From Dehalococcoidia bacterium (lineage in GTDB: Bacteria; Chloroflexota; Dehalococcoidia; UBA2979): a stretch of 47,042 nt of DNA. Each line of letters begins with the position of its first letter. Position 1 is the stretch's first letter. The notes beneath the pieces were generated by a model. The model had not been told where the DNA came from and made no database searches. It saw only the letters and a list, made by a program, of their open reading frames with translations. The position numbers and the translations under genes were made by a program. Below are positions 4,610-36,690 of this stretch, piece by piece. Location of the stretch: positions 1-47,042 of the forward strand of contig SHYQ01000004.1 of NCBI GenBank assembly GCA_009692765.1, given 5' to 3'.

Positions 4610-4970
4610 GGGGAGCCCACCCCCCGGTCCCCTCCCACTGCGCGGGAGGGGAAGAAGAAGGAGCAGTGCATGCGAGGGGGCTGCGCCCCTCGCGCTCCCG
4701 GCGGAGGCGTGCGCAGCAGGCGCGCGCCGGAACGGGGACGAAGAGAACGCGGACCGCTGATTCAGGACCCTCGCCAACGTCAGTGGGAGCGGGGAGGGCG
4801 AGGGCGCACCACGCGTCGGTGGGCGGTGCGGGCAGGGGCGCACCCTGGACGGGCGTCCGAGGGAGCAGGGGCCCATGGGGGCGCAGCCCCCATAAACAAG
4901 AACCCCCTTCCCGCGTCGGGAAGGGGGCAGGGGGATGGGCCGCCCCGCGCACACCTCGACGCCGCGCGCC
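4610..4970. repeat. Composite REP/REPIN-like element, copy 1
   Basis: Triplex-type motif at 4616-4651 and inverted at 4903-4939; triloop motif at 4672-4704 and variant ATGGGGGCGCAGCCCCCAT at 4875-4893. Confidence 0.9.
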
Positions 4971-5058
4971 GTGCTTCGAGGTGACGCGCGCGGCGCGATG
5001 CCCGAGACTGGCTCGACGGGGCGCACGAGGATCGCAGCGGACGGGCGAGGGGCTGCCG

Positions 5059-6045
5059 ATGGGACGCTGGCGGCTCGCGCTCGGGACGGCGGTCAGCGCC
5101 GCGTGCCTCGCGCTGCTACTCGCCCGCGTCGACCTCCCGGCCGTCCTCGAGGCCGCGCGCGCGGCGCGGCCGGCGTGGCTGCTCGTCGCGACGCCGCTGT
5201 TCGCCGCGTCGATCTGGACGCGCGCGATGCGCTGGCGCGCGATCCTGCGGCCGATCGCGCCGATCTCGCGCGGCGACGCCGCCGCGCTCGTGCTGATCGG
5301 CTACGCGGCGAACAACCTTCTCCCGGCGCGCACCGGCGAGGTCGTGCGCGCGGTGCTGCTGCAGCGCCGCCACGGCGCCTCCGCGGTCGCCGGCATCGGC
5401 ACGATCGTCCTGGAGCGCGTGCTCGACGGGCTCGTGCTGGCGCTGATGCTCGCCGGTACGCTCGCGCTCGCCGGCGGCTCGACGGTGCTGCGCGCGCTGG
5501 CGGGCATCGCGGGGGCGGGCTTCCTCGGCGTCGCGCTGGCGCTGGTGCTGCTCGCGACGCGGCCCGCGCTCGCGTGGCGCGTCATCGACGTCGCCCTGCG
5601 GCTCGCGCCCGCCGCGCTCGCGGCGCGCGTGCGCGCCCTCGTCGAGCGCTTCCTCGAGGGCCTGACGCTGCTGCGCGGCGCGCGCGCCTGGGGCTTCGTC
5701 GTGGCGGCCTCGGTGGGCGCGTGGGTGCTCGAGGCCGCGGCGTACTGGGCGATCGGCGAGGCGTTCGCGCTGCCGCTGGCGCCGGCGCTCTACCTGGGCG
5801 TGTCCGCCGCCGCGAACCTCGCGATCGCCGCGCCGAGCACCTCGGGCGGCATCGGGCCGTACGAGTTCTTCGCGCGCGAGGTGGTCGTGCACTTCGGCGC
5901 GGGCGTCGCGGCGGGGACGGCGTACGCGCTGGCGCTGCACGCGTTCGTGCTGCTGCCCGTGACGGTCGCGGGCATCGCGCTGCTGTGGCGGCGTCACCTC
6001 GGCCTCGCGACGCTGGCGACGGCGCGCGTGATGGCTCCCCGATGA
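5059..6045 (+). CDS. Lysylphosphatidylglycerol-synthase TM domain / flippase-like protein
   Basis: Motifs RAMRWRAIL, GYAANNLLPARTGEVVR, ERVLD, PSTSGGIGPYE; ATG at 5059. Confidence 0.85.
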   Translation: MGRWRLALGTAVSAACLALLLARVDLPAVLEAARAARPAWLLVATPLFAASIWTRAMRWRAILRPIAPISRGDAAALVLIGYAANNLLPARTGEVVRAVLLQRRHGASAVAGIGTIVLERVLDGLVLALMLAGTLALAGGSTVLRALAGIAGAGFLGVALALVLLATRPALAWRVIDVALRLAPAALAARVRALVERFLEGLTLLRGARAWGFVVAASVGAWVLEAAAYWAIGEAFALPLAPALYLGVSAAANLAIAAPSTSGGIGPYEFFAREVVVHFGAGVAAGTAYALALHAFVLLPVTVAGIALLWRRHLGLATLATARVMAPR

Positions 6046-8712: not shown

Positions 8713-10621
8713 CCCGCTCGAGTTGTACGAGGCGCTGCGCGCGCCGGCCGCGGCGGCGTACGCCGCGTGGCGCAAGCCCGTGCGCCCGCGCATCGACGTC
8801 GCGCTGGACACCTCGTCGCTCGCCAACGGCGCGGCGAAGACGCGCGCCGCGATCGCGGACGCCGTGCGCGCGCGCAACGCCGCGGTCGACCTCGGACGGG
8901 TGCACGGCTACGGCATGCAGTGGTGCCAGCCGCTGGTGACCGTGACCTTCCCCGACGGCGCCTCCGTGATCTACGGCCCCGTGGCCCCCGCCGACGCGCA
9001 GACGATCGTCGACATCGCAACGGGCGCGCTCCCCGCGCGCCACCGGCTCGCCCTCGGCACGGTGGCGGGCGCGGTGGCGGGCGTGCCGAGCATGCGCGAC
9101 CACCCCTTCTTCGCGCTCGAGCCGCGCGAGCGGCGCGTGTTGGCGAGCATCGGGCTGACCGACCCGGAGTCGCTCGACCACGCGATCGCAAACGGCGCGT
9201 ACCACGCCGCCGCGCGCATGCTCGACCGCCACCAGACGCCCGCGCAGGTGCGCCAGGCGCTCGTCGATGCCGGCGTCGGCGGCCGCGGCGGCGGCAACTT
9301 CCCCGCCGGCACGAAGTGGAACTTCCTCGCCACCACGCCCGGCGAGGAGCACTACGTGATCTGCAACGCCGACGAGGGCGACCCGGGCGCGTGGGTGAAC
9401 CGCGTGATCATGGAGGGCGATCCCCACCTGCTGATCGAGGGGCTGCTGATCGCCGCCTACGCCACGGGCTCGCGCGGCGGCTTCATCTACATCCGCGACG
9501 AGTATCCGCTGGCGATCACGCGCATCGAGCAGGCCGTGCGCGACGCCGAGGCCGCCGGCCTGCTGAGCTCCGGTGGATCGGGCGAGGGCATCCTCGGCAC
9601 CGCGCTGCGCCTCGAGCTGCGCGTGATCCGCGGCGCGGGGTCGTACGTCTGCGGCGAGGAGACGGGGCTGATCGCCTCGATTGCCGACGACCGCGGCATG
9701 CCGCGCGTGAAGCCGCCGTTCCCGGCGACCTCGGGCGTCTTCTTCAAGCCCTCGAACGTGAACAACGTGGAGACCTACGCCAACGCGCCGCTGGTGCTGC
9801 GGCACGACGCGCCGTGGTACCACCGCTACGGCACGGAGCGCATGCGCGGCACGCGGCTGTTCTCCTTCTCGGGGGACATCGTGCGCGTCGGCTTCATGGA
9901 GGTGCCGTTCGGCGTGCCGCTGGCGGGCGCGCTCGAGGCGTGCGGAGGGATCGTGCCCGGGCACGCGCTGAAGGCGGTGCAGTCGGGCGGCCCGCTCGGC
10001 TCGATGCTCTCCGCGGAGCTGCTGCCGCAGCTGGACATGGAGAACGCGCCGTTCACCGCGCTGGACGCGCTGCTCGGCGGCGGCGGCATCGTCTTCCTCT
10101 CGGACGCCGTGTGCACGATCCACATGGGTGAGATGTTCGCCGAGTTCGTCGAGGACGAGTCGTGCGGCCGCTGCACCACGTGCCTGCGCGGCAACCAGCG
10201 CATGACCGAGATCTACCGCCGCACGATCGCCGGCGGCGGCCGCCGCGAGGACCGCCACAACCTCGAGCTGATCGACCGCACGCTGCAGTTCTCGAACTGC
10301 ATCCACGGCCAGTTCAGCCCGAAGATCATGCGCAACACGCTGCGCTTCTTCCCCCAGGAGTACGAGCGCCACGCGCTGGGCCACGCCTGCGACGCGCTGA
10401 CGTGCGCCGGGCTGATCCGCTTCCGCGTCACCGACCAGCGCGACCCCGCCCTCGCCGAGGCGCAGGCAATCTGCCCGGTGGGCGCGATCACCGGCGCCCC
10501 CGGCGCGCGCGCCGTGGACGACGCGACGTGCATCCGCTGCGGCGCGTGCACGGACGTGGCGCCGCGCGGCATGGCGCGCGAGGCGGCCCCCGCCGCGCCG
10601 CGCGTGATCGCGCTGGCGTAG
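8705..10621 (+). CDS. NuoF/HoxF/HydB-like FMN NAD(H)-binding subunit
   Basis: GRGGGNFPAGTKW, CNADEGDPG, YVCGEETGL, NNVET, ESCGRCTTC...C and a C-terminal ferredoxin motif CIRCGAC. Confidence 0.9.
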   Translation: MPSPLELYEALRAPAAAAYAAWRKPVRPRIDVALDTSSLANGAAKTRAAIADAVRARNAAVDLGRVHGYGMQWCQPLVTVTFPDGASVIYGPVAPADAQTIVDIATGALPARHRLALGTVAGAVAGVPSMRDHPFFALEPRERRVLASIGLTDPESLDHAIANGAYHAAARMLDRHQTPAQVRQALVDAGVGGRGGGNFPAGTKWNFLATTPGEEHYVICNADEGDPGAWVNRVIMEGDPHLLIEGLLIAAYATGSRGGFIYIRDEYPLAITRIEQAVRDAEAAGLLSSGGSGEGILGTALRLELRVIRGAGSYVCGEETGLIASIADDRGMPRVKPPFPATSGVFFKPSNVNNVETYANAPLVLRHDAPWYHRYGTERMRGTRLFSFSGDIVRVGFMEVPFGVPLAGALEACGGIVPGHALKAVQSGGPLGSMLSAELLPQLDMENAPFTALDALLGGGGIVFLSDAVCTIHMGEMFAEFVEDESCGRCTTCLRGNQRMTEIYRRTIAGGGRREDRHNLELIDRTLQFSNCIHGQFSPKIMRNTLRFFPQEYERHALGHACDALTCAGLIRFRVTDQRDPALAEAQAICPVGAITGAPGARAVDDATCIRCGACTDVAPRGMAREAAPAAPRVIALA

Positions 10622-10626
10622 CGCCG

Positions 10627-10809
10627 ATGCTCGACGGGCGCTGGCGCTGGACGCGGGTGTGGGTGCTGTTCGCGCTGGCGAGCGTGCTGGCGTTGACGGC
10701 GTGCGCGACGGGCGCGGCCCCGTGCGCGATCACGCGCCCGCTCTCCGTCGTCACGACGCTGCTCGCCGCCGGCATCTCGCTCTTCGACGGCTCGCCCTCG
10801 GCGTACTGA
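10627..10809 (+). CDS. Small hydrophobic protein, possible lipoprotein (60 aa)
   Basis: ATG 5 nt after the nuoF-like stop; basic N-terminus, hydrophobic stretch and LTAC lipobox-like motif. Confidence 0.4.
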   Translation: MLDGRWRWTRVWVLFALASVLALTACATGAAPCAITRPLSVVTTLLAAGISLFDGSPSAY

Positions 10810-10839
10810 CGAGCGCGACGCGCGCACCCGGGCGTAGCG

Positions 10840-11320
10840 ATCGAGGACTGATGGGCGCGGCTCATCCCCCTGCCCCCTTCCCGGCGCGGGAAGGGGGTTC
10901 CGAAAGCAGAAACAGAAAGAGGTGCGAGGGGGCTGCGCCCCTCGCGCTCCCGGCGGAGGCGTGCGCGGCAGGCGCACGCCGGAGCGGGGGACGCGACCCC
11001 GGCCCGTTCAGAACCCCCTCCCCGCAGGGGGAGCGGGCAGGGTGAGGCGCGCCTGCCGCGCGCCGTTCCACCGGGAGCGCGAGGGGCGAGCTTCGACGAC
11101 TGCCCGGCCGTGCGACACAGGCGCACACCGGAGCGGGGGACGCGACCCTGGCCCGTTCAGAACCCTCTCCCCGCAGGGGGAGCGGGCAGGGTGAGGCGCG
11201 CCTGCCGCGCGCCGTTCCGCCGGGAGCGCGAGGGGCGCAGCCCCCTCGCAACCAACTCTCCTCATCTTGAACCCCTCCCGCGCCGGGAGGGGGCAGGGGG
11301 CGGGCCGCCCCCGTCAGTCC
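10840..11320. repeat. Composite REP/REPIN-like element, copy 2, with an internal duplication (149-bp period)
   Basis: Inverted ends at 10861-10956 and 11218-11304; direct repeat 10969-11088 vs 11118-11237. Confidence 0.92.
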
Positions 11321-11349
11321 GCGGACGCGCGGCGCCTCGGACGCCCCGC

Positions 11350-11988
11350 TCAGCCCTCGAGGTCGGCGCGCTCGGAGTAGACGAAGCCGAGCAGGCGGTA
11401 GCGGCCCTTGCGCAGCGCCACCTCGTCCCACGGCATCAGGCGGGTGGCGACGATGCCCCAGCCGGTGGTGCGCCAACGCGGCTGGCCGGGGCAGGCGTCG
11501 CCGGCGTTCATCTCGCTCACCACCAGGCCGTCGTCGGTGACCGCCTCGACCCAGGCGCAGTGGCCGTTGAAGGCGCGCGGGCTGGAGACGCCGTCCCAGT
11601 CGTCCCACACCACGATCGTCGAGACGCGCGCGCCCTCGAGGTCGGCGCGCACGCGCCAGCCGGCGGCAGCGGCGTTCCAGAACCAGGTGCGCGCGCCACC
11701 GGACCAGTTCACGCCGGGCTCGGGCGCCACCGTGTCGAAGCGGCGCGCGGCGTACGTGGTGCACTGGCCGCCGCTGCCCTCGCGCACGCTGGCGAAGCCC
11801 TTGTACGGGCGCGCGTCGCGGCCCTCCATGTCGCACGCGCCCGCCGCCCCGGCCACGTGCTCGCCGCGCCCGCGGCCGAGCGGCGCCAGCAGCAGCGCGC
11901 CCGCCGCGGCGCCCGCCAGCGCGCCGGCGAGCCGGCCGAGGAAGGCACGGCGGGAGGCGGGCGCGGGGAGGGCGGGGGCGGTGGACAT
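11350..11988 (-). CDS. Tat-exported CHAP-domain amidase
   Basis: SRRAFLGRL Tat motif; GQCTTYA (catalytic Cys), GHCAWVEAV (His), VSEMN. Confidence 0.8.
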   Translation of the reverse strand: MSTAPALPAPASRRAFLGRLAGALAGAAAGALLLAPLGRGRGEHVAGAAGACDMEGRDARPYKGFASVREGSGGQCTTYAARRFDTVAPEPGVNWSGGARTWFWNAAAAGWRVRADLEGARVSTIVVWDDWDGVSSPRAFNGHCAWVEAVTDDGLVVSEMNAGDACPGQPRWRTTGWGIVATRLMPWDEVALRKGRYRLLGFVYSERADLEG

Positions 11989-12176
11989 GAAGCGAGAGCC
12001 TACCGGGCCGGCGGCCCGCTGTCACCCCCGGTCGCCGGGCACCATCGCCGGCGGCCGGGGCGCGTGCGGCCCGTCCGGCGGGCCCGTCCGCGGGGGCCTT
12101 CCGAGGGGAGCGGCGGGCGCGTAGACTGAGCGGGTCGGGCCACCCCGCGTCTCCCCGCGGAAGCGCAGCACCCACC

Positions 12177-14951
12177 GTGGCCACGTCTCCGCGCTCCAGC
12201 ACCGGCGGCTCCGCGCGCTCTGGCGCCCACACGCCCGCGCGGCAGCAGTACCTCGATCTCAAGGCGCAGCACCCCGACGCGCTCCTGCTGATCCGCATGG
12301 GCGACTTCTACGAGACCTTCGACGCCGACGCCGAGACGGCGGCGCGCGTGCTCGGCATCGTGCTGACCTCGCGGCCGATGGGCGGCGCCGCGGGTGGGGC
12401 GGAGGCGCGCGTGCCGCTCGCGGGGATCCCCCACCACCAGCTGGAGCGCTACCTCGACCAGCTGGTGGCGGCGGGGCTGCGCGTCGCGATCGCCGACCAG
12501 ACCAGCGTGCCGCCGTCGAAGGGGGGCGCGCCGGGGCTCGTGGAGCGGCGGATCACGCGCGTCGTGACGCCGGGGACGGTGGACCGCGGGGCGCTGCTCA
12601 CCGAGCGCGGCAACAACTGGCTCGTCGCGATCGCCCCCGTCGGCGCCCCCGCGGGCGAGGCCCCCGGGGAGGGCGCGCGCTGGGGGCTCGCCGCGTGCGA
12701 CGTCACCACCGGGGAGCTGGAGCTCTCGCTGGCCGCCACGGAGGCGCTGGCGGGCGAGTGGGCGCGCCTCGCGCCGCGCGAGGTGCTGCTGGCCGAGGGC
12801 ACGCCGGCGACGGTGCTCGCCGCCGCGCTGGGGGCGCTGCCCGACGGGGCGCTGCGCACGGAGCGGCCGGCGCGCGAGTTCCGGCCCGACCGCGCGACGG
12901 CGGCGCTGGCGGAGCGGCTCGGCGTCGCCAGCCTCGAGGGGTACGGGCTCGAGGCCTTCGCGGCCGCCGTGGGCGCGGCGGGCGCGATCGTGGCGTACCT
13001 CGCGGCGACGTGGCCGCAGGCGCTGGCGCACCTGCGCGCGCCGCGCGCGGTGCGCGCCGCGGACGTCGTCTACCTGGACCCGCAGACGCGGCGGAACCTG
13101 GAGCTCTTCGCCCCTTCAGCGGGCGGAGGCGCACCGGGCGGAGGCGCGGCCGGCGCGGGCTCGCTGGTGGAGACGCTGGACCGCACGCTGACGGCGATGG
13201 GGGCGCGGCTGCTGCGCGCGCGCCTGGGGCGGCCGCTGCGCGCGGCGGCAGCGGCCGACGCGCTGCTGGACGAGGTGGCGGCGTTCGTGGACGCGCCGCT
13301 GCCGCGCAGCGCGCTGCGCGGGGCGCTGCGCGGCCTGCCGGACTTCGAGCGGCTGCTGGGGCGCGTGCGCGCCGGCAGCGCGGGGGCGCGCCAGCTGGTG
13401 CAGCTGCGGCGCGGGCTGGAGGCGCTGCCGGCGCTGCGCGCGCGCGCCGTGGAGGCCGGCGCCGCCGCCGCGGCGATGGCGCGCGGGCTCGCCGGGGGCG
13501 GCGAGGCGGCGGCGGCGATCGCGGCGGCGCTGGACGACGACCCGCCGGCGGAGGTCGGCGAGGGCGCGACGGTGCGCGACGGCTTCGACGCGGAGGTCGA
13601 CCGGCTGCGCGCGCTGGCCAGCGGCGCGCGCGACGCGCTCGCCGCGCTGGAGACCGCGGAGCGCGCGCGCAGCGGCATCGCCACGCTACGCGTCGGCTAC
13701 CACCGCGTCTTCGGCTACTACCTCGAGTGCGGGCGCGGGCAGGCGGAGCGCGCGCCGGCGGACTACGAGCCGCGCCAGACGCTGGCGAACGCGCAGCGCT
13801 TCCGCTTCGCGGCGCTGGCCGCGCTGGAGACGGAGATCCTCGGCGCGAAGGAGGCGCTGCTCGAGGCGGAGCGCGGCGTGCTCGACCGCGCGCGGGCGCA
13901 GGCGGCGGCGGCGGGCGCCGAGATCGAGCGCGCGGCGGCGGCGGTGGCGCGGCTGGACGTAGCGGCCGCGCTGGCCGAGGCCGCCGCGGACGGCGGCTAC
14001 GTGCGCCCGGAACTGGCCGAGGGCGGCGCGATCGTGATCGAGGGTGGCCGCCACCCGGTGGTGGAGCGCGGCCTGCCGCGCGGCGCCTTCGTGCCGAACG
14101 ACGTGTCGCTTGGCGGCGGGGCGGGCGGCGGGATGGGCGGCGGGGCCGACATCATCGTGCTCACGGGGCCGAACATGGGCGGGAAGTCCACCTACCTGCG
14201 GCAGACGGCGCTGATCGTGCTGATGGCGCAGTGCGGCGTCTACGTGCCCGCGACGCGCGCCCGGGTGGCAATGGTCGACCGCATCTTCTCGCGGGTGGGG
14301 GCGCAGGACGACATCGCGTCGGGGCGCTCGACGTTCATGGTGGAGATGCTCGAGACCGCGACCATCTTACATAACGCGACAGAGCGGTCGCTGGTGATCC
14401 TGGACGAGGTCGGGCGAGGCACCGCCACCTACGACGGGCTGGCGATCGCGCGCGCCGTGCTCGAGCACCTCCACCACCGGCCCGGCGGGACGCCGAAGAC
14501 GCTGTTCGCGACGCACTACCACGAGCTGACGGCGCTCTCCGGCACGCTGCCGCGCGTGGCCAACCGCGCCGTCGCGGTGCGCGAGGAGGAGCAGGAGATC
14601 GTGCTGCTGCACCGCGTCGTCGAGGGCGGCGCGGACCGCTCGTACGGCGTGCACGTGGCGGCGCTGGCGGGGCTGCCGCGCCCCGTGGTAGCGCGCGCGC
14701 GCGAGTTGCTCGCCGACCTCGAGGCAGCACCGCTCGCTGGAGCGTCCGCCGCGCCGTCCACGGGGGGGCGCGGCGCAGCGCGCGCGGTGGCGGCGGGCGC
14801 GCAACTGGCGCTGGTGGCGGCGGCGGCGGACGAGGCGCTGCTGCGCGAGCTGGCAGCGCTCGACGCCGACGCGCTGACGCCGCTCGCGGCGCTCCAGCGG
14901 CTCTACGAGCTGCGCGCGGCGGCGCGCCGCCGGCTGGGCGTCGAGGGATGA
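12177..14951 (+). CDS. mutS: DNA mismatch repair protein MutS
   Basis: TPARQQYLDLK, RMGDFYETF, GRHPVVE, TGPNMGGKSTYLRQ, STFMVEM, DEVGRGT, FATHYHEL, SYGVHVA. Confidence 0.98.
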   Translation: MATSPRSSTGGSARSGAHTPARQQYLDLKAQHPDALLLIRMGDFYETFDADAETAARVLGIVLTSRPMGGAAGGAEARVPLAGIPHHQLERYLDQLVAAGLRVAIADQTSVPPSKGGAPGLVERRITRVVTPGTVDRGALLTERGNNWLVAIAPVGAPAGEAPGEGARWGLAACDVTTGELELSLAATEALAGEWARLAPREVLLAEGTPATVLAAALGALPDGALRTERPAREFRPDRATAALAERLGVASLEGYGLEAFAAAVGAAGAIVAYLAATWPQALAHLRAPRAVRAADVVYLDPQTRRNLELFAPSAGGGAPGGGAAGAGSLVETLDRTLTAMGARLLRARLGRPLRAAAAADALLDEVAAFVDAPLPRSALRGALRGLPDFERLLGRVRAGSAGARQLVQLRRGLEALPALRARAVEAGAAAAAMARGLAGGGEAAAAIAAALDDDPPAEVGEGATVRDGFDAEVDRLRALASGARDALAALETAERARSGIATLRVGYHRVFGYYLECGRGQAERAPADYEPRQTLANAQRFRFAALAALETEILGAKEALLEAERGVLDRARAQAAAAGAEIERAAAAVARLDVAAALAEAAADGGYVRPELAEGGAIVIEGGRHPVVERGLPRGAFVPNDVSLGGGAGGGMGGGADIIVLTGPNMGGKSTYLRQTALIVLMAQCGVYVPATRARVAMVDRIFSRVGAQDDIASGRSTFMVEMLETATILHNATERSLVILDEVGRGTATYDGLAIARAVLEHLHHRPGGTPKTLFATHYHELTALSGTLPRVANRAVAVREEEQEIVLLHRVVEGGADRSYGVHVAALAGLPRPVVARARELLADLEAAPLAGASAAPSTGGRGAARAVAAGAQLALVAAAADEALLRELAALDADALTPLAALQRLYELRAAARRRLGVEG

Positions 14952-15019
14952 GTGCGCGTCGAGGGATGGGTGGGCGGGGCGGGGTGAGCGCGCCTCGCGG
15001 GGCCGGTCGCCTCCACTCC

Positions 15020-15170
15020 CGCGTGCGCCTGCCGCGCACGCCTCCGCCGGGAGCGCCTCCGCCGGAAGAGCGAGGCGCGCAGCCCACTCGCATCACCTGC
15101 TGCTGTCGGAACCCCCTCCCGCGCAGGGAGGGGGCAGGGGGTGGGCCGCGCCCCGCGTGCCTCGACGCCA
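15020..15170. repeat. Decayed half-element of the repeat family, copy 3
   Basis: Degenerate triloop motif with a CGCCTCCGCCGG duplication (15039/15054), followed by an intact triplex-type motif at 15112-15145. Confidence 0.85.
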
Positions 15171-15196
15171 CGCGCGCGTCGCGCGAGGCGCGCGGC

Positions 15197-16699
15197 TCAG
15201 CGCGGGGCGGGGCCGGGCGGGGCGCCGGCGTCCCCGGCGCGCGTCGCGCCGGGGACGCCGGCGCGATAGAGCGGCGCCTCGAGCGCCGCGCCGATGTCGA
15301 GCAGGCCGGGGTCGCCGGGGAGCGCGCCGGGCTGGCGGCTGTTCAGCAGCAGCATGCGCAGCAGCGGCGCGGCGGCCTCCGGGAAGCGCGCGCGCAGCAG
15401 CGCGGCGGCGCCCGCGACGATCGGCGTGGCGAAGGAGGAGCCGCTGGCGGAGGCGTAGGGGCCGTCCGTGCAGATCCAGCCGTGCGTGCCGCAGAACTCG
15501 CGCGGCACCGCGCTGAGCACGTTGACCCCCGGCGCCATGACGTCGACGGCGCCGAAGTTCGTGAAGGCGGCGAGTGCGCGGTAGTCGATGCCCGTCGGGC
15601 CGACGCGTCCGCTGGCGGCGACCGAGATTACGCCGGGGTAGGCGGCGGGATAGGTGATGCCGGGGCGGCCGTCGTTGCCGGCGGAGGCGACGACGAGCGC
15701 GCCGCGCGCCTGCGCCTCCAAGATCACCTCGCGCAGCACGAGCGAGTCGTTGGTGGTGCCGAAGGAGACGTTGATCACGTGCGCGCCCATGCGCGCGGCG
15801 TAGCGGATGCCGGCGGCGGCGTCAGCGATGCGGCCGGTGGCAGTGCAGTCGAGCACCTTGACGGAGAGCAGCCGCGCCTGCCAGGCGACCCCCGTCATGC
15901 CGGTGGCGTTGTCGCCGGCGGCGGCGGCGAGGCCCGCGACGAAGCTGCCGTGGCCGTCGTCGTCCCAGGCGCGCGCGTTGGGCGGCGGCACGTCGTAGCC
16001 GCAGTCGGGGTCGGCGGTCGCCAGCGTGACGAAGTTGCACCCGGCGAAGTCGGCGACGCAGCCGTTGCCGTCGTCGTCGCGGCCGGACAGCGGCTGCTCG
16101 CGCGGGTTGCGGTAGATGCGCTCGCGCAGGTCGGGGTGATCGAAGCCGATGCCGGTGTCGATGATCGCGATGAGCACGCCCACCCCGCCGGTGGAGATCT
16201 CCCACGCCGCCGGCGCGCGGATCACCTCGAGGTAGCCGGACTGCCGCGCGTACATCGGGTCGTCGGGGAGGCGGGCGGCGCGCACGATGGCGTCCGGCTC
16301 GACGCCGCGCGCGAGCCCGCTGGCGGCGAGGCGCGCCGCCAGCGCGGTGGCGTCGCCGCCGCGCGGGACGCGCACGCGCACGGCGGCTTCGCCGGCGCCC
16401 GGGCGCAGCGCGTCGAAGCCGGCGGCGGCGAGCCGTGCGTGCGCCGCGGCGACGTCGAGGCCGCGCGCCGGCGAGACGAGCACGACGTCGGTGTCCGCCG
16501 GGACCGGGAACAGCTCGACGCGGCGCGCGGCGGCGTCCGCGGAGCGCGCGGCCGGCGCAGCGTTGTGCGGCGCGAGCACGGCGAGCACCGTGGCTCCGCG
16601 GGGCGCGGGGTCGTGCGGCGCGAGCACGGCGACGGCGGCCAGCGCGACGAGCGCGGACAGGCGGAGCAGACGCGGCGGCGCGTGGCGCTGGGTAGCGAT
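15197..16699 (-). CDS. Secreted S8 (subtilisin-like) serine peptidase; start codon uncertain
   Basis: Triad motifs IIDTG, GHGSFVAG and GSSFATPIVAG; oxyanion SAGN; the signal-peptide-like frame extends upstream of GTG 16627 to ATC 16699. Confidence 0.9.
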   Translation of the reverse strand: MATQRHAPPRLLRLSALVALAAVAVLAPHDPAPRGATVLAVLAPHNAAPAARSADAAARRVELFPVPADTDVVLVSPARGLDVAAAHARLAAAGFDALRPGAGEAAVRVRVPRGGDATALAARLAASGLARGVEPDAIVRAARLPDDPMYARQSGYLEVIRAPAAWEISTGGVGVLIAIIDTGIGFDHPDLRERIYRNPREQPLSGRDDDGNGCVADFAGCNFVTLATADPDCGYDVPPPNARAWDDDGHGSFVAGLAAAAGDNATGMTGVAWQARLLSVKVLDCTATGRIADAAAGIRYAARMGAHVINVSFGTTNDSLVLREVILEAQARGALVVASAGNDGRPGITYPAAYPGVISVAASGRVGPTGIDYRALAAFTNFGAVDVMAPGVNVLSAVPREFCGTHGWICTDGPYASASGSSFATPIVAGAAALLRARFPEAAAPLLRMLLLNSRQPGALPGDPGLLDIGAALEAPLYRAGVPGATRAGDAGAPPGPAPR

Positions 16700-16815
16700 C
16701 GTGTCCCGCCCGTCTGGGGAGGCCGTGGTGAAAGGCTCGCGCTCATGCTAGCCAGCGGCCGATCGGCGGGCAACCGCGCGGGCCGAGTCCGCCGCGCCCC
16801 GGTGCGGGGGACGCG

Positions 16816-18624: not shown

Positions 18625-18649
18625 CAGCGCGCGCGAGGGCGTCGCGGCG

Positions 18650-18990
18650 GGTGCTGCGTGGCGATCGCGTTGCTTGCGCGGGGCGGCCCACCCCCTGCCC
18701 CCTCCCGGCGCGGGAGGGGGTTCTGAAACAGCAGGGGATTTCTCCCATCCCCCCGGCCCCCTTCCCTCCGGGAAGGGGGAGTTCGCCTCGACGCTTCGCG
18801 CGAGGGATTGGAGGGAGGCGCCCGCCCGTCTTCGCTCCGGCGTGCGCCTACCGCGCGCGCCTCCGCCGGGAGCGCGAGGGGCGCAGCCCCCTCGCACCAA
18901 CGTTCCTCATTCTGGAACCCCCTCCCGCGCCGGGAGGGGGCAGGGGGTGGGCCGCCCCGCGCAAGCAACGCGATCGCCGCGCATCACCGC
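18650..18990. repeat. Composite REP/REPIN-like element, copy 4, with 64-bp perfect terminal inverted repeats
   Basis: 18660-18723 is the exact reverse complement of 18915-18978; internal triplex motif at 18744-18779 and triloop motif at ~18864-18896. Confidence 0.95.
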
Positions 18991-19033
18991 GAGGGCGCCG
19001 CCCGCACGGTCATCGACGCCTGCGCGGTGCGCG

Positions 19034-20019: not shown

Positions 20020-20660
20020 GGGGAGGAGACCCACCCCCCGGCCCCCTCCCGCTCCAGCGGGAGGGGGAGAGGAAGAAGCATGAGGATGCGAGGGGGCTGC
20101 GCCCCTCGCGCTCCCGGTGGAACGGCGCGCGGCGGGCGCGGCTCGGAGCAGAGGGGGCGGCGCGCTCCCACATCAGAACCTCTCGCCGCCCCGGCGGAGA
20201 GGGGCAGGGGCAAGGCTCCCTTCCCGGCGCGGGAAGAGGGTTCTGCCAGAGCAGAGGGTGATGCGAGGGGGCTGCGCCCCTCGCGCTCCCGGCGGAACGG
20301 CGCGCGGCGGGCGCGCCTCGGAGCAGAAGGGGCGGCGCGCTCCCGCGTCAGAACCCCTCGCCGCCCCGGCGGAGAGGGGCAGGGGCAAGGCCCCCTTCCC
20401 GGCGCGGGAAGGGGGCCAGCAGGGAAGGTGGCTTCCACCCATCCCCCCGGCCCCCTTCCCGCGCGGGAAGGGGGAGCTGGCGAGAGCGTTGCGCGCCTCG
20501 CCCCAGACCCGCAGGCGAAGCCTCCCGCTCGCGATCCGGCGTGTGCCTACCGCGCACGCCTCCGCCGGGAGCGCGAGGGGCGCAGCCCCCTCGCATCTCC
20601 CTCCGTTTCCGACCCCCCTCTCCCGCTCCGCGGGAGAGGGGACGGGGGTAAGGGTCCCGC
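20020..20660. repeat. Composite REP/REPIN-like element, copy 5, with a 175-bp tandem unit
   Basis: Units start at 20085 and 20260; triplex motifs at 20030, 20438 and 20613; inverted triloop motif at ~20562-20595. Confidence 0.93.
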
Positions 20661-22894: not shown

Positions 22895-22924
22895 CGCGCG
22901 GCGTCGAGGTCGCGCGCGCGACGC

Positions 22925-23530
22925 GACGGAAGCGGATCCTTCGACGTCCCAGTCGGCGTCGAGGTGCTGCGTGGGGCGGCCCACCCCCTGCCCCCTCCCT
23001 CGCGGGAGGGGGTTCAGATTCCAGAAGGAAATTTCTCCCATCCCCCAACCCTCTTCCCTGGCGGGAAGGGGGCTCGGACCTCGGCGCTACGCGAGAGTGC
23101 TCGGACGAGGCAGCGCGAGGGGCGGGCGCGAGCGCCGAGCGGTGAGCCGTGCCGCAGCGCGGCCGCGCTTTCAGATCCCGCGAGGCGAAGCTCTCGCGGA
23201 TCCCCCTTCCCGGTGGGAAGGGGGCCGGGGGGATGGGCGATCTCAACTTCTGGTCTCGGAACCCCCTTCCCGCGCCGGGAAGGGGGCCTCACCCCTGTCC
23301 CTCTCCGCCGGGGCGACGAGGGGTTCTGACGCGGGAGCGCGCTGCCCCCTCTGCTCCGAGGCGCGCCCGCGGCGCGCCGTTCCGCCGGGAGCGCGAGGGG
23401 CGCAGCCACCTCGCATCACCCGCTGCTCTTGCAGAACCCCCTTCCCGCGTCGGGAAGGGGGCAGGGGGATGGGCCGCCCCACGCAGCACCTCGACGCCGC
23501 GCGAGAGCTCGAGTGCTCCGCTTCCGCCGC
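22925..23530. repeat. Composite REP/REPIN-like element, copy 6 (nested)
   Basis: 30-bp perfect IR 22954-22983/23470-23499; triplex motifs at 22980, 23037, 23202 and 23437; inverted copy of the 175-bp unit at ~23260-23435. Confidence 0.93.
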
Positions 23531-23545
23531 CGCTCAGCGCGCCAA

Positions 23546-24532: not shown

Positions 24533-24624
24533 CGCGTCTCCCTCGCCGGCCCACGCCGCGGTTCGCCACTCGTGCGATCGAGGTTAGCGCGCCGCCGCAC
24601 GCGAGGCGAAAGCCGTCCGCTGCA

Positions 24625-24741
24625 CTCCCCCTTCCCGCCGGGAAGGGGGCCGGGGGGATGGGAGGATACCCCTCTGTTCCTATACTCCCCTTCCCGCGAA
24701 GGGAAGGGGCAGGGGGATGGGCCGCGCCGCTCAGTCCTCGA
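24625..24741. repeat. Half-element with two tandem triplex-type motifs, copy 7
   Basis: Motifs at 24627-24662 and 24687-24721; outer tail TCAGTCCTCGA is shared, inverted, with copies 2 and 8. Confidence 0.85.
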
Positions 24742-24786
24742 ACGCCGCACCGCCATCGCGATCGTCCGGTCGAGCCGCGAGCGCGG

Positions 24787-27069: not shown

Positions 27070-27719
27070 CGCCGGCGCAGCGCGAGCAGGCCGAGGCCCG
27101 CGCCCGCCGCGCCGAGCGCGAGGCCAGCGAGCGCCAGCATCCGCGCGGTCGAGGCGGCGTCAGAGGCCGACTTCGCTGCTGCGCTCGCGGAGGCGGCCGC
27201 GTCAGCGGCACCCCTCGCCGCGCCCTGTATCTCGCGGGTGCTGGCCACGGCCTGCGGGAACTGGATCGCGGTGGCCGGTTCGATCAGCGCGAACGTGTTC
27301 GGGCTCGCCGTGAACGTCTGGTCGACGTTGACCGCGTCGAGCGTGCCGGTGAAGCGGAACTTGTAGACGCCCGTCGCCGTGGGCAGCAGGTCGGCGGTGT
27401 ACGCGCCGGGCGAGTTGAAGATCGTGCGGAGCGTGAACGCCTTCGTCGTGTTGCTCTCGACGTGCGTCACCTCGAGCCTCAGCGTCTGCTCGGCGCCCTC
27501 GACGGGCCTGCCGTCCTTCGTGATGCGCAGGTCGACGCCGTTCTTCTGGCTCTCGAGGGCGGGCTCGACGATCCAGCCGACGACGAACTGGTAGCCGCTC
27601 ACATCGCGGCGCTCGTGCGCCAGCGCGACTGCGGGCGTCCCGACCAAGACGGCGAGCGCGAGCAGCGCCGCGGCGGGGAGCGCACCGCGCGGGCGCATGC
27701 CAGAGCGAATCGGGGTCAC
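27066..27719 (-). CDS. Exported membrane-anchored protein with mature N-terminal His (putative copper chaperone)
   Basis: GGAGGAG-6nt-GTG start; signal peptide ALA|HE; VGWIVEP; beta-rich domain; C-terminal TM + RRR; GTGA-coupled to the copCD fusion. Confidence 0.8.
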   Translation of the reverse strand: MTPIRSGMRPRGALPAAALLALAVLVGTPAVALAHERRDVSGYQFVVGWIVEPALESQKNGVDLRITKDGRPVEGAEQTLRLEVTHVESNTTKAFTLRTIFNSPGAYTADLLPTATGVYKFRFTGTLDAVNVDQTFTASPNTFALIEPATAIQFPQAVASTREIQGAARGAADAAASASAAAKSASDAASTARMLALAGLALGAAGAGLGLLALRRR

Positions 27720-27725
27720 GGGTAT

Positions 27726-27795
27726 CTCCTCCACGCGGTGCGCATGATCGACGTGCCGCCCGCGGGCGGCCGCGGTCATGCGCGCGGCGGAGGAG
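27726..27795 (-). promoter_or_regulatory. SD-sequestering mRNA hairpin (anti-SD inside the Pro codons of the leader ORF)
   Basis: On the mRNA, CTCCTCC (27795-27789) pairs with SD GGAGGAG (27732-27726); GCGCATGA (27783-27776) pairs with TCATGCGC (27747-27740); inner palindrome at 27755-27770. Confidence 0.75.
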
Positions 27796-28189
27796 CGGGC
27801 ACCGCCGCCACGATGCCGGGCGGCCGCGTGGGGAGCGCGGCGTCGACGACGATCGACGGCGCGCCGGCGATGGCGAGCGGCGCGGGCGTCGCGAGGGCGA
27901 GCGCGCCGGCGACGCCGGCGTCCGCCGCGGTGAAGACGACGTCCGTCGAGGCCTCGGCGGCGCCCGCATCGCGGGCAGCGGGGGCGTCGCCGGGGTGGCG
28001 GTGAGCAGGGACGGCGACCGCGAGCTCGCCGCCATCGCGGAAGACGTGGCCGTGGTCGGGGCGCCGACCCAGCAGCCCCGGGTCCACCACCAGGGCCAGC
28101 GTCGACGGCATCAGCGCGGCCGCCGCGAGCGCCGCCAGCAGCGCCGCCACCAGGCGCGAGGAGGGCTGTCGAGGCTGCGCAACGACCAT
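27776..28189 (-). CDS. Putative regulatory leader/arrest peptide (137 aa; TM, HGH/HRH, C-terminal PAPPPRA)
   Basis: N-terminal hydrophobic helix, two HxH motifs and a Pro-rich end; TAGAGT -10 box 6 nt before the ATG. Confidence 0.65.
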   Translation of the reverse strand: MVVAQPRQPSSRLVAALLAALAAAALMPSTLALVVDPGLLGRRPDHGHVFRDGGELAVAVPAHRHPGDAPAARDAGAAEASTDVVFTAADAGVAGALALATPAPLAIAGAPSIVVDAALPTRPPGIVAAVPAPPPRA

Positions 28190-28326
28190 CGTCGAACTCT
28201 AGCCGCTGCCACCGGGGGTGGGTAGTGGTCGTTGGGCATCCGCCAGCGGGACGTTCGGCCCCCCGGCGAGTACGCTGGGCTGCCGCGCGGGATCGCCACG
28301 CGACACGTTGGAGAGGATACCGATCG

Positions 28327-29046
28327 ATGACGACCGACTGGCCGGCGCTCGCCACGCGCCTTGAGGCCGCGCTGGGGCTGCAAACGCCCCCCATCGCGAT
28401 CACGTTCGCCGCCGCCGCCCCCGCCGGCGTTGCGCCCTTCGCCGCGCCGATGCCCACGCCCGCCGACGACGGGCGGACGGGACGCGTCGCCGCGGGCTGC
28501 GTCTTCTGGATGCACGGCAGCGAACGCACCTTCGCCACGGTCGCGGAGGACCACGCGAACTGCTCGGTGGGCAGCATGACCCACGGCTTCAAGACGCTCG
28601 ATGAGGTCGCGGGCAACGGCGACGTCGCGGCGCTGCTGGAGGCGGGCTGGGTGACGCTGGATGTCGTGCCGCAGATCCCGGTGGTGCGCGAGCGCCCCGG
28701 CGCGGTGGTGTACGGCCCGCTGGCGCAGACCGCGGAGGACCCCGACGTGGTGATGCTGCGGATCAGCGGCCGCCAGCTGATGGTGCTGAGCGACGCCTAC
28801 CCGGGCCTGCGCATCGAGGGCAAGCCGCAGTGCCACATCATCGCGATCGCGAAGGAGCAAGGCGAGCTCGCGGCGTCGGTCGGCTGCCAGCTCAGCCGCG
28901 TGCGCACCGGCATGCCCAACGGCGAGATGACGTGCGCGATCCCCGCCGCCCGGCTCGCCGAGGTGGTCGACCGCGTCGAGCTTACGGGGGTCGCCGACAA
29001 CGCGGTCGCGCGCTACGCGGCGGCGGACATGCAGCGCTTCGCCTAG
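28327..29046 (+). CDS. DUF169-family protein
   Basis: LGLQTPPIAITF, AGCVFW, DHANCSVG, VVYGPL, PDVV, KPQCH, SVGCQLSR. Confidence 0.75.
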   Translation: MTTDWPALATRLEAALGLQTPPIAITFAAAAPAGVAPFAAPMPTPADDGRTGRVAAGCVFWMHGSERTFATVAEDHANCSVGSMTHGFKTLDEVAGNGDVAALLEAGWVTLDVVPQIPVVRERPGAVVYGPLAQTAEDPDVVMLRISGRQLMVLSDAYPGLRIEGKPQCHIIAIAKEQGELAASVGCQLSRVRTGMPNGEMTCAIPAARLAEVVDRVELTGVADNAVARYAAADMQRFA

Positions 29047-29069
29047 CGATCCCGCGAAGCCGAGCGCGC

Positions 29070-29335
29070 GCCTCGAGGACTGAGCGGCGCCCGCGCCGGG
29101 CGCGTCGAGTTGGGCGCGGGGGCGGCCCTTCCCCCTGCCCCCTTCCCGGCGCCGGAAGGGGGGACTTCTTTCTTGTGGGGGCTGCGCCCCCACGGGCCCC
29201 GCGCCACGAAGCGAGCCGCCATCGGGTCGGTGCACCTGGAGCGATCCGAGGAGCCCATCGCCCCGCGCCCCTCCGAGGCGCGCCCACCGCGCGCCGTTCC
29301 GCCGGGAGCGCGAGGGGCGCAGCCACCTCGCATCA
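29070..29335. repeat. Composite REP/REPIN-like element, copy 8
   Basis: Triplex motif at 29126-29162; triloop variant at 29175-29193; inverted triloop motif at 29299-29332. Confidence 0.9.
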
Positions 29336-29367
29336 TCCTCTCGCGCGCCGTACAGCAGCCGGACGTG

Positions 29368-29393
29368 CGCAGGGGGCCCGGAGGCCCCCTGCG
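29368..29393 (-). terminator. GC-rich hairpin downstream of the CHRD gene
   Basis: CGCAGGGGGCC-CGGA-GGCCCCCTGCG, a perfect 11-bp stem with no U-tract. Confidence 0.5.
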
Positions 29394-29416
29394 GTCGTGG
29401 CGTGCTCGGCGCGCCG

Positions 29417-30127
29417 CTAGCGGCGGCCCGCCTCGCGCGTGGCGGCGCGGCCACCCGCGACCACGGCGAACGCGAGCACCAGCAGCAGGCCCACCTCGAA
29501 CGGGCTCGTGCCCGCGCCCATGCCGACGAGGCCGGCGTTGCCGGTCTTCGACGGCGCGGGGGAAGCGGCCGGGGCCGCAGCCGGGGCCGCCGCAGCCGCC
29601 GCCGGAGCGGGCGCGGCGGCCGCGGCGGCGACCTGCGCGCGGATCTCGCCGCCTGCGTTCGCCGAGGTGTGCACGTTCACGTACAGCCCGCCGGCCTTCA
29701 GCGCCGTCACGAAGCCGGCGAAGTTGCCGGCAAGCGGGCCCGTGAGATCCGCCACCCGGGAGGTGCCCGATGCGTTCACCGAGGCCGTGGGCGCGCCGGT
29801 TGGCGCGGCGAACAGCGACAGCACCACCGGGGCGTTCACGCCAGCGGCGCCCGCGTGCAGGTGCGCCGCGGTGGCGCTGGTGATCGACGGGACGCTCAGC
29901 GTCCACGTCAGCGTGCCCGCGGCCTCGTCCAGAGTAGCCGTGAAGGCGCCGGTGGCCGTCGTCGTCACCGCCGGGACCTCGTTCGCGCCGGACGCCGTGG
30001 CCGACCAACGCGTGGTGGCGGCGGGCGTCTGCGCCGCCGCGATCGCGGGCAGCACGACGGCGACCGTCGCCGCCGCCAGCCCCGCGCCGACCCAGCGCCA
30101 TATGCTGCGAGTTGTCCTAGTCTTCAT
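29417..30127 (-). CDS. Secreted CHRD-domain protein with a sortase-like C-terminal signal
   Basis: SGANEVP, AAHLH, LYVNVHT, GEIRAQ; Ala/Pro linker; PSKTGNAGL + TM + basic tail. Confidence 0.85.
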   Translation of the reverse strand: MKTRTTRSIWRWVGAGLAAATVAVVLPAIAAAQTPAATTRWSATASGANEVPAVTTTATGAFTATLDEAAGTLTWTLSVPSITSATAAHLHAGAAGVNAPVVLSLFAAPTGAPTASVNASGTSRVADLTGPLAGNFAGFVTALKAGGLYVNVHTSANAGGEIRAQVAAAAAAPAPAAAAAAPAAAPAASPAPSKTGNAGLVGMGAGTSPFEVGLLLVLAFAVVAGGRAATREAGRR

Positions 30128-35076: not shown

Positions 35077-36492
35077 ATGGCCGATTCGATCAGCAGGCAG
35101 TTCGCGCGATGGGCGGCGCACCTCACGTACGAGGATCTGCCGCCCGCCGTCGTGGACAAGGTGAAGGCGCTCGTGCTGCAGCACCTCGTCGCCGCGACGA
35201 TGGGCGCGCCGATGCCGCGCGCGAAGGAGATCGTCGAGCTCGTGAAGCGCGAGGAGGGCAAGGCAGACGGCGCCACGATCATCGGCGACGGTGCGAAGGC
35301 GACGCGCAACGGCGCGACCATCGCGAACTGCGAGGTGCTGCACGTCTCCGGGCTGTACGACTCGTACCGCATGATCACGCACCCCGGCCCCGTCGTGATC
35401 GCGGTGGCGCTGACGAACGCCGAGCTCGAGCACAAGTCCGTGAAGGAGATGATCACCGCGCTCGCCGCCGGCTACGAGTTCGAGTGCCGCCTCGCCAACG
35501 ACTTCGTCCCGAGCACCTCGGCGCACGGGTACCGGCCCGCCCCGATCTTCTCGACGATGGGCGCGGTGATGGTGGCGGCGAAGCTAATGGGGCTGCACGA
35601 GGACGGCATCGTCGCCGCCATCGCGATCGCGACGAGCAGCGCCTCCGGCCTCAACGAGGCGGGGCGCGTCGGCGGTGGCGAGCAGGCGTTGCACGAGCCG
35701 AATGCGGCGAAGCAGGGCGTGTGGGCGGCGACGATGGCGCGCACCGGTCACGTGAAGGGCTCGGAGACCTCCATCGAGGGTGACGCGGGGTTCTACAACG
35801 CCTACGCCGGCAGCCGCAACGGGAAGCTGTCGTACAACTTCCAGGGGCCGATGCAGACGGACCTCGCGAAGATCACGGCCGGCCTCGGACAGCACTACGA
35901 GATGCTGACGGTGATGTTCCGTATGTACTCCACGGCGGGCTTCAACCAGCCGGTGATCGACCTGATCAAGGAGATGCGCGAGCAGCACCACATCGACCGG
36001 GCCAAGATCGACCGCGTCACGCTGTTCATGAACTACCTCGAGACGCTCTACCCGAGCCCGGAGTTCCCGCGCGTGCCCGACCCCTCGCAGGCGTACCCCG
36101 GCAGCACGCAGTACTTCGCCGCGCACGCCGCCGTGCACGGCGGCTACCCGGTGGTGGGCGGGCGGCGCTACGGCCCGCAGAGCGGCGAGCTGCTCGAGGA
36201 CCGTGCGGTGCTCGACTTCATGATGCATCACGTGCGCCTCGTCGGCGTGCACGACCAGCCGATGTTCTCGCCAGAGATCACGATCCGCATGCAGGACGGC
36301 ACGACCTACACCGGCGCGTACCCCTACCAGCGCATGGAGTGGAACTTCGACCAGATCGTCGAGCGGCTGCAGGAGTGCGTGCCGGGCATCCCCGGCGGCC
36401 AGGGCCAGCTCGACGCGCTCGTCGAGCTGATGCGCACCGCGGAGACGCTGCCCTCGACGGTGCGGATGCTCGAACTCACCGCCTCGAAGTAG
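35077..36492 (+). CDS. MmgE/PrpD family protein
   Basis: LTYEDLPPAVV, THPGPVVI, AAGYEFECRL, IEGDAGFY. Confidence 0.88.
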   Translation: MADSISRQFARWAAHLTYEDLPPAVVDKVKALVLQHLVAATMGAPMPRAKEIVELVKREEGKADGATIIGDGAKATRNGATIANCEVLHVSGLYDSYRMITHPGPVVIAVALTNAELEHKSVKEMITALAAGYEFECRLANDFVPSTSAHGYRPAPIFSTMGAVMVAAKLMGLHEDGIVAAIAIATSSASGLNEAGRVGGGEQALHEPNAAKQGVWAATMARTGHVKGSETSIEGDAGFYNAYAGSRNGKLSYNFQGPMQTDLAKITAGLGQHYEMLTVMFRMYSTAGFNQPVIDLIKEMREQHHIDRAKIDRVTLFMNYLETLYPSPEFPRVPDPSQAYPGSTQYFAAHAAVHGGYPVVGGRRYGPQSGELLEDRAVLDFMMHHVRLVGVHDQPMFSPEITIRMQDGTTYTGAYPYQRMEWNFDQIVERLQECVPGIPGGQGQLDALVELMRTAETLPSTVRMLELTASK

Positions 36493-36564
36493 CGCGCGGC
36501 CTCGAGACGCGGGCGGGGGCGGCCTCGGCGTTGCATCGCGGCGGCGCGGGTCGCTCGACAAGCT

Positions 36565-36690
36565 GCGGGGGGCGGCCCACCCCCTGCCCCCTCCCTGCGG
36601 GGGGGGGGTGCAGGAATCGGAAGTGATGCGAGGGGGCTGCGCCCCTCGCGCTCCCGGCGGAGGCGTGCGCGGTAGGCGCGCGCCGCGGTG
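36565..36690. repeat. Half-element of the repeat family, copy 9
   Basis: Triplex motif at 36576-36608, then triloop motif at 36628-36660. Confidence 0.88.

Follow-up and report, generated by a model that had tools for sequence, protein, structure and literature searches.

BoxC and PIT elements, reportedly the subject of papers by Hoyne et al. in 2000 and Bergler in 1992, are among the described systems closest to the repeat analyzed here. Another is formed by repetitive extragenic palindromic (REP) sequences and bacterial interspersed mosaic elements (BIMEs) with their REP-associated tyrosine transposases (RAYTs, of the Y1 HUH type): dispersed GC-rich extragenic hairpins, arranged in mosaics, with a single-copy enzyme gene bracketed by inverted repeats. 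Holder 2015 (PMC4666352) defines four classes of intrastrand triplex motif. The BoxC/PIT/TMECO repeats have been known since the 1990s from E. coli, other Proteobacteria and cyanobacteria, and no function, partner protein or proof that the proposed triplex is selected is reported for them in the text of that paper. TMECO oligonucleotides fold as a triplex by circular dichroism (CD) and nuclear magnetic resonance (NMR), the 18 imino signals in the NMR spectrum being interpreted as a triplex and not as a G-quadruplex (G4) (Holder 2015, PMC4666352). Here we describe a repeat of similar layout in a 47,042-nucleotide stretch of DNA from a Dehalococcoidia bacterium (contig SHYQ01000004.1; hereafter the window), which has a G+C content of 74% and is contig C23 of an assembly of 1.26 Mb in 67 contigs, 75.57% complete. 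On its G-rich strand the unit runs in the order pyrimidine arm (Y), loop, purine arm (R), 2-3 nt, third arm (H). The three arms covary position by position, with independent compensatory changes, and the copies prefer the gaps between convergent genes. The same layout forms the inward-facing inverted ends of small DUF559 genes, which belong to the Vsr or EDxHD-type PD-(D/E)xK nucleases, in many phyla.

The initial annotation of the window had listed about 19 copies of the motif. The three-part unit was found at every one of these coordinates (19/19), and two degenerate copies were found in addition (Table 1). Copies are referred to below by their first coordinate. As the annotation had proposed, single-A stems occur with GGGGGTGGG at 4616, 15112, 18687, 18918, 20030, 22980 and 36576, and AA stems occur with a third arm of the form ...AT... 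at 4903, 18744, 20438, 23202, 23437, 24627 and 24687; the three remaining AA-stem copies (10861, 23037 and 29126) are degraded or variant. Copy 11272, which had been singled out for a C, does combine a single-A stem with a C in the third arm and thereby breaks the rule. The AGA-stem copy, 20613, has TAA in H, with an A opposite a G, and is the other rule breaker in the window. Copies 10861, 23037 and 36576 have one arm mutation each. The loop lengths of 3-8 nt given for the family hold across the window copies. For each main type, the core made up of R, spacer and H occurs 6 times in the window, compared with 0.00 expected from 100 dinucleotide shuffles; read backwards, the pattern had 0 matches in the 41 genomes scanned.

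The whole genome was then examined for homopurine-arm hairpins, of which there are 241, and 205 of these have a parseable third arm within 0-4 nt, which over 1.26 Mb amounts to about 1 per 6 kb. In 188/205 copies the third arm mirrors the purine arm exactly and its interruption tracks that of the stem, as had been claimed from the window alone: A with T in 53 copies, AA with AT in 87 and AGA with TGA in 48. Of the 36 hairpins whose third arm could not be parsed, most are copies in which that arm has a single mutation. The AA/AT type is present in 7/7 same-genus genomes and in three further genera of 33 sampled. The hairpin has one recurrent imperfection, a conserved G in the Y arm that stands opposite an A in the R arm; the third arm still has A or T there. 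This mismatch position was seen genome-wide in the F4 subfamily, at the loci L066 and L088, and in the 'mm' type of E. coli TMECO.

The mirrored arms could in principle be the product of descent only, if about three subfamilies with arms that matched by chance had been amplified, and their arms inherited or passed on by block gene conversion without being selected. Three arm pairs do make up 188/205 copies, the core is only about 35 nt long, so that conversion could carry the whole block, and on F1, a large backbone, loop and spacer are common to the A and AA types. The copies were therefore clustered on the 5' flank, loop, spacer and 3' flank, with the arms left out. At the tightest cut, 7/10 clusters of at least 4 members contained two arm types (for example 17 A/T with 14 AA/AT, 5 A/T with 9 AGA/TGA, and 1 A/T with 6 AA/AT), and chimeras between stem and third arm numbered only 2/205. 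A single-A copy on the F2 backbone retains the short F2 loop and CC spacer, and single-A copies on F3 retain the 6-8-nt loops typical of F3. Because the loop and the spacer lie between the arms, these switches on F2 and F3 are not one block swap from the single-A type of F1; with the loops and spacers of the backbone unchanged, they require separate changes in three arms.

DUF559 genes provide a second and wider set of copies. This genome has one such gene, at about 5880-6475 of contig C46 (locus L007), which encodes 124 aa and keeps the conserved D, E-x-D and H residues. It is flanked on each side by a near-identical direct repeat of about 100 nt, each of which is an inverted pair of AGA/TGA motifs. 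In DUF559 loci from 41 relatives of the same class, a class II motif adjoins the small open reading frame (ORF) in 18/20. The usual form is Y-R-H, 10-40 nt, ORF, 5-15 nt, H'-R'-Y', with the third arms directed inward. A wider sample was assembled with one genome per species, and the best 80 of at least 543 relatives, from many phyla, were examined. Among these 80, a motif lies within 150 nt of the DUF559 gene in 63 (on the left in 46, on the right in 58, on both sides in 41), and elsewhere in the 80 loci there were only 33 matches across 206 kb.

In a comparison with the PDB, the DUF559 profile matched 3hrl, an 'endonuclease-like protein' (E 7e-36), and 3r3p, a 'mobile intron protein' (2e-6). 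It also matches the NCBIfam model 'DUF559 domain-containing protein', below the equivalog cut-off of that model. We know of no biochemistry for DUF559. Among the papers listed as mentioning DUF559, none was found with the term in its title or abstract, and ycjD, the E. coli K-12 gene annotated DUF559, was not found in the papers listed for BoxC and triplex repeats. One of the 23 TMECO copies of E. coli sits 168 nt past the ycjD stop, and a remnant of the motif is found at the stop itself. Between ycjD and fabI (locus L107, E. coli K-12 record 1351040-1351410) there is a partial second copy of the last ~30 nt of ycjD. This 3' duplication and the motif remnant suggest an old duplication or the decay of an element. 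In the loci L009, L010, L012 and L014, the DUF559 frame reads through the right-hand repeat, which thus encodes a Pro/Gly/Ser-rich tail ahead of the stop. Beside DUF559 genes of other Chloroflexota, at L033 452-725 and L024 1255-2034, there are gene-less pairs, each combining a left-type with a right-type motif at a distance of about 20 nt; their third arms face inward, in the manner of miniature inverted-repeat transposable elements (MITEs), and they are arranged like the inverted TMECO pairs of E. coli. A tandem array of 5 copies with identical arms and a period of about 82 nt is also present. It should be noted that DUF559, the candidate partner of motifs that bear a mismatch, is related to the mismatch nuclease Vsr.

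The copies at these genes were used for a separate test of covariation. Hairpins near the 80 DUF559 genes were detected by their Y and R arms alone (n=144). An exact fit of the best-placed third arm to the mirror code was found in 93/144 (65%), and a fit with at most one mismatch in 107/144, whereas with the R arms of other loci as a control the corresponding values were 8% and 45%. Per-column tables show, in every variable column, A in R with A or T in H, and G in R with G in H. The exact arm pairs are of 21 different kinds. From the DUF559 protein tree we took 40 edge-disjoint sister pairs, which yielded 41 comparable ends. Independent sister loci differ at 23 R-arm positions, and 16 of these changes are matched in H. 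When the tails were permuted among loci and the offset re-optimized, the mean was 9.1 (standard deviation 2.2), and 16 was reached in 1/500 runs; with the register slid by -1, +1 and +2, only 4, 1 and 2 of the 23 were matched. Between the left and the right end of one element, 32/35 differences are compensated. At least one compensated change was present on 12 independent pair-sides.

The initial annotation had itself named two or three ancestral subfamilies, with no independent compensatory change, as the alternative to a covarying structure. This is contradicted by arm types that switch on at least 7 backbones in the genome, and also by the 21 exact arm pairs and the 16/23 matched changes at DUF559 loci. 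Descent only would have to produce those 21 pairs at homologous genes, the 12 pair-sides with compensated changes, a matched count that permutation reaches once in 500 runs, and arms that switch while the loops and spacers between them stay. We give it very little credence. At the level of sequence, there is a strong case for maintenance of the three-arm code. Base-to-base contact between antiparallel strands would be expected to give a mirror relation; with a two-fold symmetric protein, the relation expected would be a direct one.

The initial annotation had proposed an antiparallel purine-motif triplex similar to the BoxC/PIT repeats, and the layout and base rules are indeed those of class II (Y-R-H), the class of E. 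coli BoxC/PIT/TMECO. The class II order (ITxF) was found in 19/19 of the listed copies, with arms of 8-12 nt (stems of 6-15 are allowed) and a second loop of 2-3 nt; the first loop of 7-8 nt in copies 4616, 20030 and 20613 is above the ITxF limit of 6. The class II base rule, a homopurine R arm and an antiparallel H arm that places G across from G and either A or T across from A, was found in 188/205 copies. The repeat is real and very abundant, and it adds a new member to the class II purine-motif intrastrand triplex repeats already known. A triplex formed in the cell may be the property of these repeats that is under selection.

A switch between hairpin and G4 is one alternative: R and the third arm, which together have four G runs, would form a G4 in competition with the hairpin, and the mirror symmetry would be incidental. 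The R+H part of all window types conforms to the G4 motif (four runs of at least three G, loops of 1-7 nt), which speaks for such a fold. The predicted G4 energies of R+H alone (-9.6 to -14.5 kcal/mol, calculated with the RNA G4 parameters of the model) are comparable with those of the DNA hairpin (-11 to -16 kcal/mol), and for the single-A type the optima are mixed, with hairpin and G4 together. Since the model lacks a term for triplexes, nearest-neighbor energies cannot discriminate between hairpin, triplex and G4, and CD alone cannot tell a triplex from a G4 (Holder 2015, PMC4666352). However, a G4 needs neither interruptions of equal length, nor interruptions of A/T only, nor a mirror register, and all three are kept in 188/205 copies. 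Nor does it explain why slid registers match 1-4 of 23 changes and the true register 16. At DUF559 loci the canonical four-run motif is found in only 8/21 exact arm pairs (56/93 copies); therefore G4 is not the conserved property. The TMECO imino signals cited above were likewise taken as triplex and not G4. Altogether, we regard the G4 switch as improbable.

With few exceptions the copies are intergenic (203/205), according to our own gene calls from codon statistics (1171 genes, 83% coding). Convergent gaps contain the motif in 53/164 cases (32%), compared with 51/782 tandem and 12/158 divergent gaps. The median gap length is about 380-425 nt with copies and 48-195 nt without; the repeat copies explain why convergent gaps here measure about 380 nt and not about 70 nt. 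A gene 3' end faces the third arm in 145/201 copies, at a median distance of 64 nt.

These placements, together with the stability of the hairpins, would suit an element that acts at the level of RNA, with the hairpin as a terminator or REP-like 3'-end stabilizer of the upstream mRNA and the third arm as a passenger. Yet in co-directional gaps the orientation of the copies is only 49 versus 38, and this explanation offers no reason for a conserved, covarying third arm. An intrinsic terminator, defined as a GC-rich hairpin followed by a T-rich tail, was found at 1/18 copies in 10000-29999, a region with 2 such sites against 1.9 expected by chance. Searches of Rfam gave no match at the gathering score and 7 matches below it, to microRNA and viral hairpin models (E 0.035 to 0.83). 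Terminator activity was not found for E. coli PIT elements, and purine-motif triplexes do not form in RNA (Holder 2015, PMC4666352). We consider an RNA-level role about as improbable as the G4 switch.

One group of copies, a composite repeat of ~410 nt at 18625-19033, lies between mutL and its convergent neighbor. In G001, G002 and G003, all of the same genus, the stop codons of these two genes are shared or abutting and the composite is absent from the junction. It was thus inserted relative to the same-genus genomes. In G005 the neighbor gene was not found between mutL and the aminotransferase gene. Contigs compared at 85% likeness, one each in X1, X2 and X3, join 18624 to 19248, with a shorter side of 29 letters, and in one X3 contig only 8 other letters separate 18646 from 19008. 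They look like empty sites in relatives and may come from other organisms; the claim of insertion is based on the comparison with G001-G003 and not on these contigs. The summed contig depth exceeds that of the flanks about 100-fold in the bins that cover the repeat, which means only that the repeat is multi-copy in the sample.

The reading we favor, and consider probable, is that the copies are gene-less (MITE- or REP-like) class II triplex-motif repeats of the BoxC type, with a fold and a dependence on DUF559 of the following kind. The homopyrimidine and homopurine arms of the G-rich strand would pair as a hairpin, and the third G/A/T arm, 2-3 nt further on, would fold back antiparallel to the purine arm, where it could form G.G-C, A.A-T and T.A-T triplets. 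The fold would form on transiently single-stranded DNA and not on RNA, since read-through from the neighboring genes would mostly carry the C-rich complement. It may be the structure that a DUF559 nuclease recognizes or cuts, and the window copies may be spread or maintained in trans, by analogy with REP and RAYT or with the NTS/SRM hairpins and Ssn. The DUF559 nuclease may thus be the missing partner of the repeat. A further step, which we put forward tentatively as somewhat short of an even chance, is that the three-stranded fold is the DUF559 substrate and that BoxC-type repeats are the non-autonomous offspring of an undescribed pan-bacterial element consisting of a nuclease and structured ends.

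A number of observations weigh against this reading. The window has no DUF559 gene and thus no DUF559-bracketed element; its copies are gene-less. No motif is seen at 17/80 of the best DUF559 loci, and 7/23 of the sister-pair changes are uncompensated. The placement counts rest on our own gene calls. In E. coli, DMS (dimethyl sulfate) footprinting in vivo showed no protection, and PIT elements were without promoter, terminator or replication effect in earlier work (Holder 2015, PMC4666352). In 4 same-genus genomes the DUF559 locus is found in synteny, and the putative autonomous copy has therefore not moved recently. Within the genus the number of AA/AT copies (2 to 77) does not track that of DUF559 matches (0 to 5), and G002, which is 91% complete, has copies and no DUF559 match. 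Finally, the third arms of DUF559 elements face inward, whereas those of the F1 copies in the window mostly face outward, towards gene ends.

Synteny, copy number and arm direction would all be expected if the triplex code were real but DUF559 were not the mobilizer, being instead a host or domesticated nuclease that acts on these structures, or a flanked passenger, with the repeats spread by some other means such as replication slippage or template switching at the fold. In addition, Ssn, the closest working analog, modulates transformation and does not transpose its repeats (Chenal 2025, PMC11893778). However, tight inverted bracketing on both sides in 41 of the best 80 loci, across phyla and with lineage-specific arms, is what would be expected of a unit that travels together, and we hold a DUF559 that does not mobilize the repeat to be unlikely, if less so than the RNA and G4 alternatives. 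The outer flank of F1 was also considered as a possible relic of a DUF559 3' end. A blastn comparison of 85 F1 copies with all DUF559 loci recovered essentially the motif only, with the best match at the right end of L015, and thus gave the idea no support.

The copies form mosaics together with a second hairpin module and with linkers richer in A/T. The second module is a GC-rich hairpin, G4-5 C (3 nt) G C4-5, within a longer conserved stretch; it has no third arm and accompanies F1 and F3 copies of the triplex motif on the Y-arm side. Frequent arrangements are same-strand F2-F1 doublets and pairs with the third arms outward; A and AA types are mixed in 10/19 of the outward-facing pairs. In both such pairs of the window, the inverted repeat continues 25-35 nt past the third arm, into sequence foreign to the other copies (18660-18690 with 18950-18985, and 22960-22982 with 23470-23500; partner identity 88% and 82%). 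As a general boundary of the composites, a long locus-specific inverted repeat was rejected: over 19 pairs the median identity of partner flanks was 0.40, equal to the 0.40 of non-partners, and the extension was seen in 1 of the other 17 pairs in the genome. Between 20070 and 20420, a composite unit of ~175 nt occurs in 2 tandem copies, each with a second-module hairpin, a conserved GC-rich stretch, a degenerate AGA-like motif and an AA-type hairpin that lacks a third arm. Elsewhere in the window, a single long ORF at 24787-27057 (-) fuses CopC, CopD, YtkA-like and cytochrome c domains (Pfam).

Table 1. Repeat copies and associated hairpins in the window.
Position	Strand	Feature
4616..4651	-	Copy, single-A stem, third arm G6-T-G3, spacer ACC, 7-8-nt first loop
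4903..4939	+	Copy, AA stem, third arm G5-AT-G3, backbone F1
10861..10897	-	Copy, AA stem, last G run of third arm broken (degraded)
11014..11047	+	Degenerate AGA-like copy, C within R arm; outside the earlier list
11163..11196	+	Degenerate AGA-like copy; outside the earlier list
11272..11304	+	Copy, single-A stem, third arm with C (rule broken)
15112..15145	+	Copy, single-A stem / T third arm, F1
18687..18720	-	Copy, single-A / T, F1; outer left end of ~410-nt composite
18744..18779	-	Copy, AA / AT, backbone F2 (short loop, spacer CC)
18918..18951	+	Copy, single-A / T, F1; outer right end of ~410-nt composite
20030..20067	-	Copy, single-A / T, F3-type backbone (8-nt loop, spacer CC)
20391..20415		AA-type hairpin without third arm
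20438..20474	-	Copy, AA / AT, F2
20613..20654	+	Copy, AGA stem; TAA in third arm, one G>A away from the usual TGA of the genome
22980..23012	-	Copy, single-A / T, F1
23037..23072	-	Copy, AA / AT, F2; one G>A in purine arm
23202..23237	+	Copy, AA / AT, F2
23262..23286		AA-type hairpin without third arm
23437..23473	+	Copy, AA / AT, F1
24627..24662	+	Copy, AA / AT, F2; first of same-strand F2-F1 doublet
24687..24721	+	Copy, AA / AT, F1; second of same-strand F2-F1 doublet
29126..29163	-	Copy, AA stem with degraded Y arm; AA in third arm, compatible with the triplex code
36576..36608	-	Copy, single-A / T, Y arm T>C
4676-4689, 4877-4891, 10928-10941, 11232-11245, 18878-18891, 20092-20105, 20267-20280, 20577-20590, 29177-29191, 36632-36645		Second-module hairpins

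In the text of Holder 2015 (PMC4666352), triplex repeats are not linked to a mobile element, and the strings covari- and compensat- and the terms endonuclease, DUF559 and ycjD do not occur; the text of Chenal 2025 (PMC11893778) is likewise free of triplex, BoxC, DUF559 and Vsr. We found no published link between DUF559 and triplex repeats, and the supplementary tables of both papers may list relevant loci or taxa. For genome annotation, the repeats account for the long convergent intergenic gaps of this genome. The arm variants on shared backbones and the DUF559-linked relatives amount to a natural compensatory-mutation experiment, in which the third arm keeps in step with the purine arm at one position after another. 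If the proposal is true, this would be the clearest evolutionary evidence so far for natural selection on an intramolecular DNA triplex. A small, easily purified nuclease, with E. coli YcjD as a homolog, would as candidate partner make the old BoxC question testable at the bench.

Like BoxC and TMECO, the repeat has the class II order (Y, R, reverse-Hoogsteen arm) on one strand, G/C-rich arms of 9-10 nt and the same triplet code, and as in TMECO the copies are intergenic and form inverted pairs of unlike types. The AGA/TGA subfamilies of this genome share with TMECO the arm core, the mismatch-tolerant position (TCN against AGA) and a second loop of the CC(G) type. The strict TMECO pattern, CCCTCNCCC N3-6 GGGNGAGGG N3 GGGNGAGGG, had 0 matches in the genome; with relaxed loops there were 50, none of them on the contig of the window, whose A/T and AA/AT arms are other variants. 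Other differences from TMECO are the Dehalococcoidia host, the mosaics with other hairpins, the density (about 1 per 6 kb here, compared with 23 copies in the E. coli K-12 MG1655 chromosome) and the strong bias for convergent gaps, of which there is none for E. coli TMECO (Holder 2015, PMC4666352).

H-DNA has the same reverse-Hoogsteen triplets and the same mirror relation between R and H (Holder 2015, PMC4666352), but here a hairpin arm provides the pyrimidine partner from within the strand itself, so that one single strand suffices and no supercoiled duplex is needed. With REP and RAYT the repeat has in common the dispersed GC-rich extragenic hairpins, the mosaics and a single-copy enzyme gene within inverted repeats. 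REPs differ in having no mirror third arm, and the Y1 transposase (Y1_Tnp, PF01797) had 0 matches in this 75.57%-complete genome, while control genomes were positive. The SRM/NTS hairpins and the Ssn (GIY-YIG) single-strand nucleases offer a close parallel, a small nuclease gene flanked by a repeat of which hundreds of copies are also dispersed (PMC11893778). At least one repeat is found beside 71% of Ssn homologs and repeats on both sides of 42% (Chenal 2025, PMC11893778), compared with 79% and 51% for DUF559. The two differ in the nuclease fold, Vsr-like PD-(D/E)xK in DUF559 and GIY-YIG in Ssn, and in the covarying third arm, which the repeat described here has and SRM/NTS has not. If the proposal holds, DUF559 and its repeat would be a third partnership of repeat and enzyme beside REP/RAYT and SRM/Ssn, and the first in which the DNA signal is read as a triple helix.

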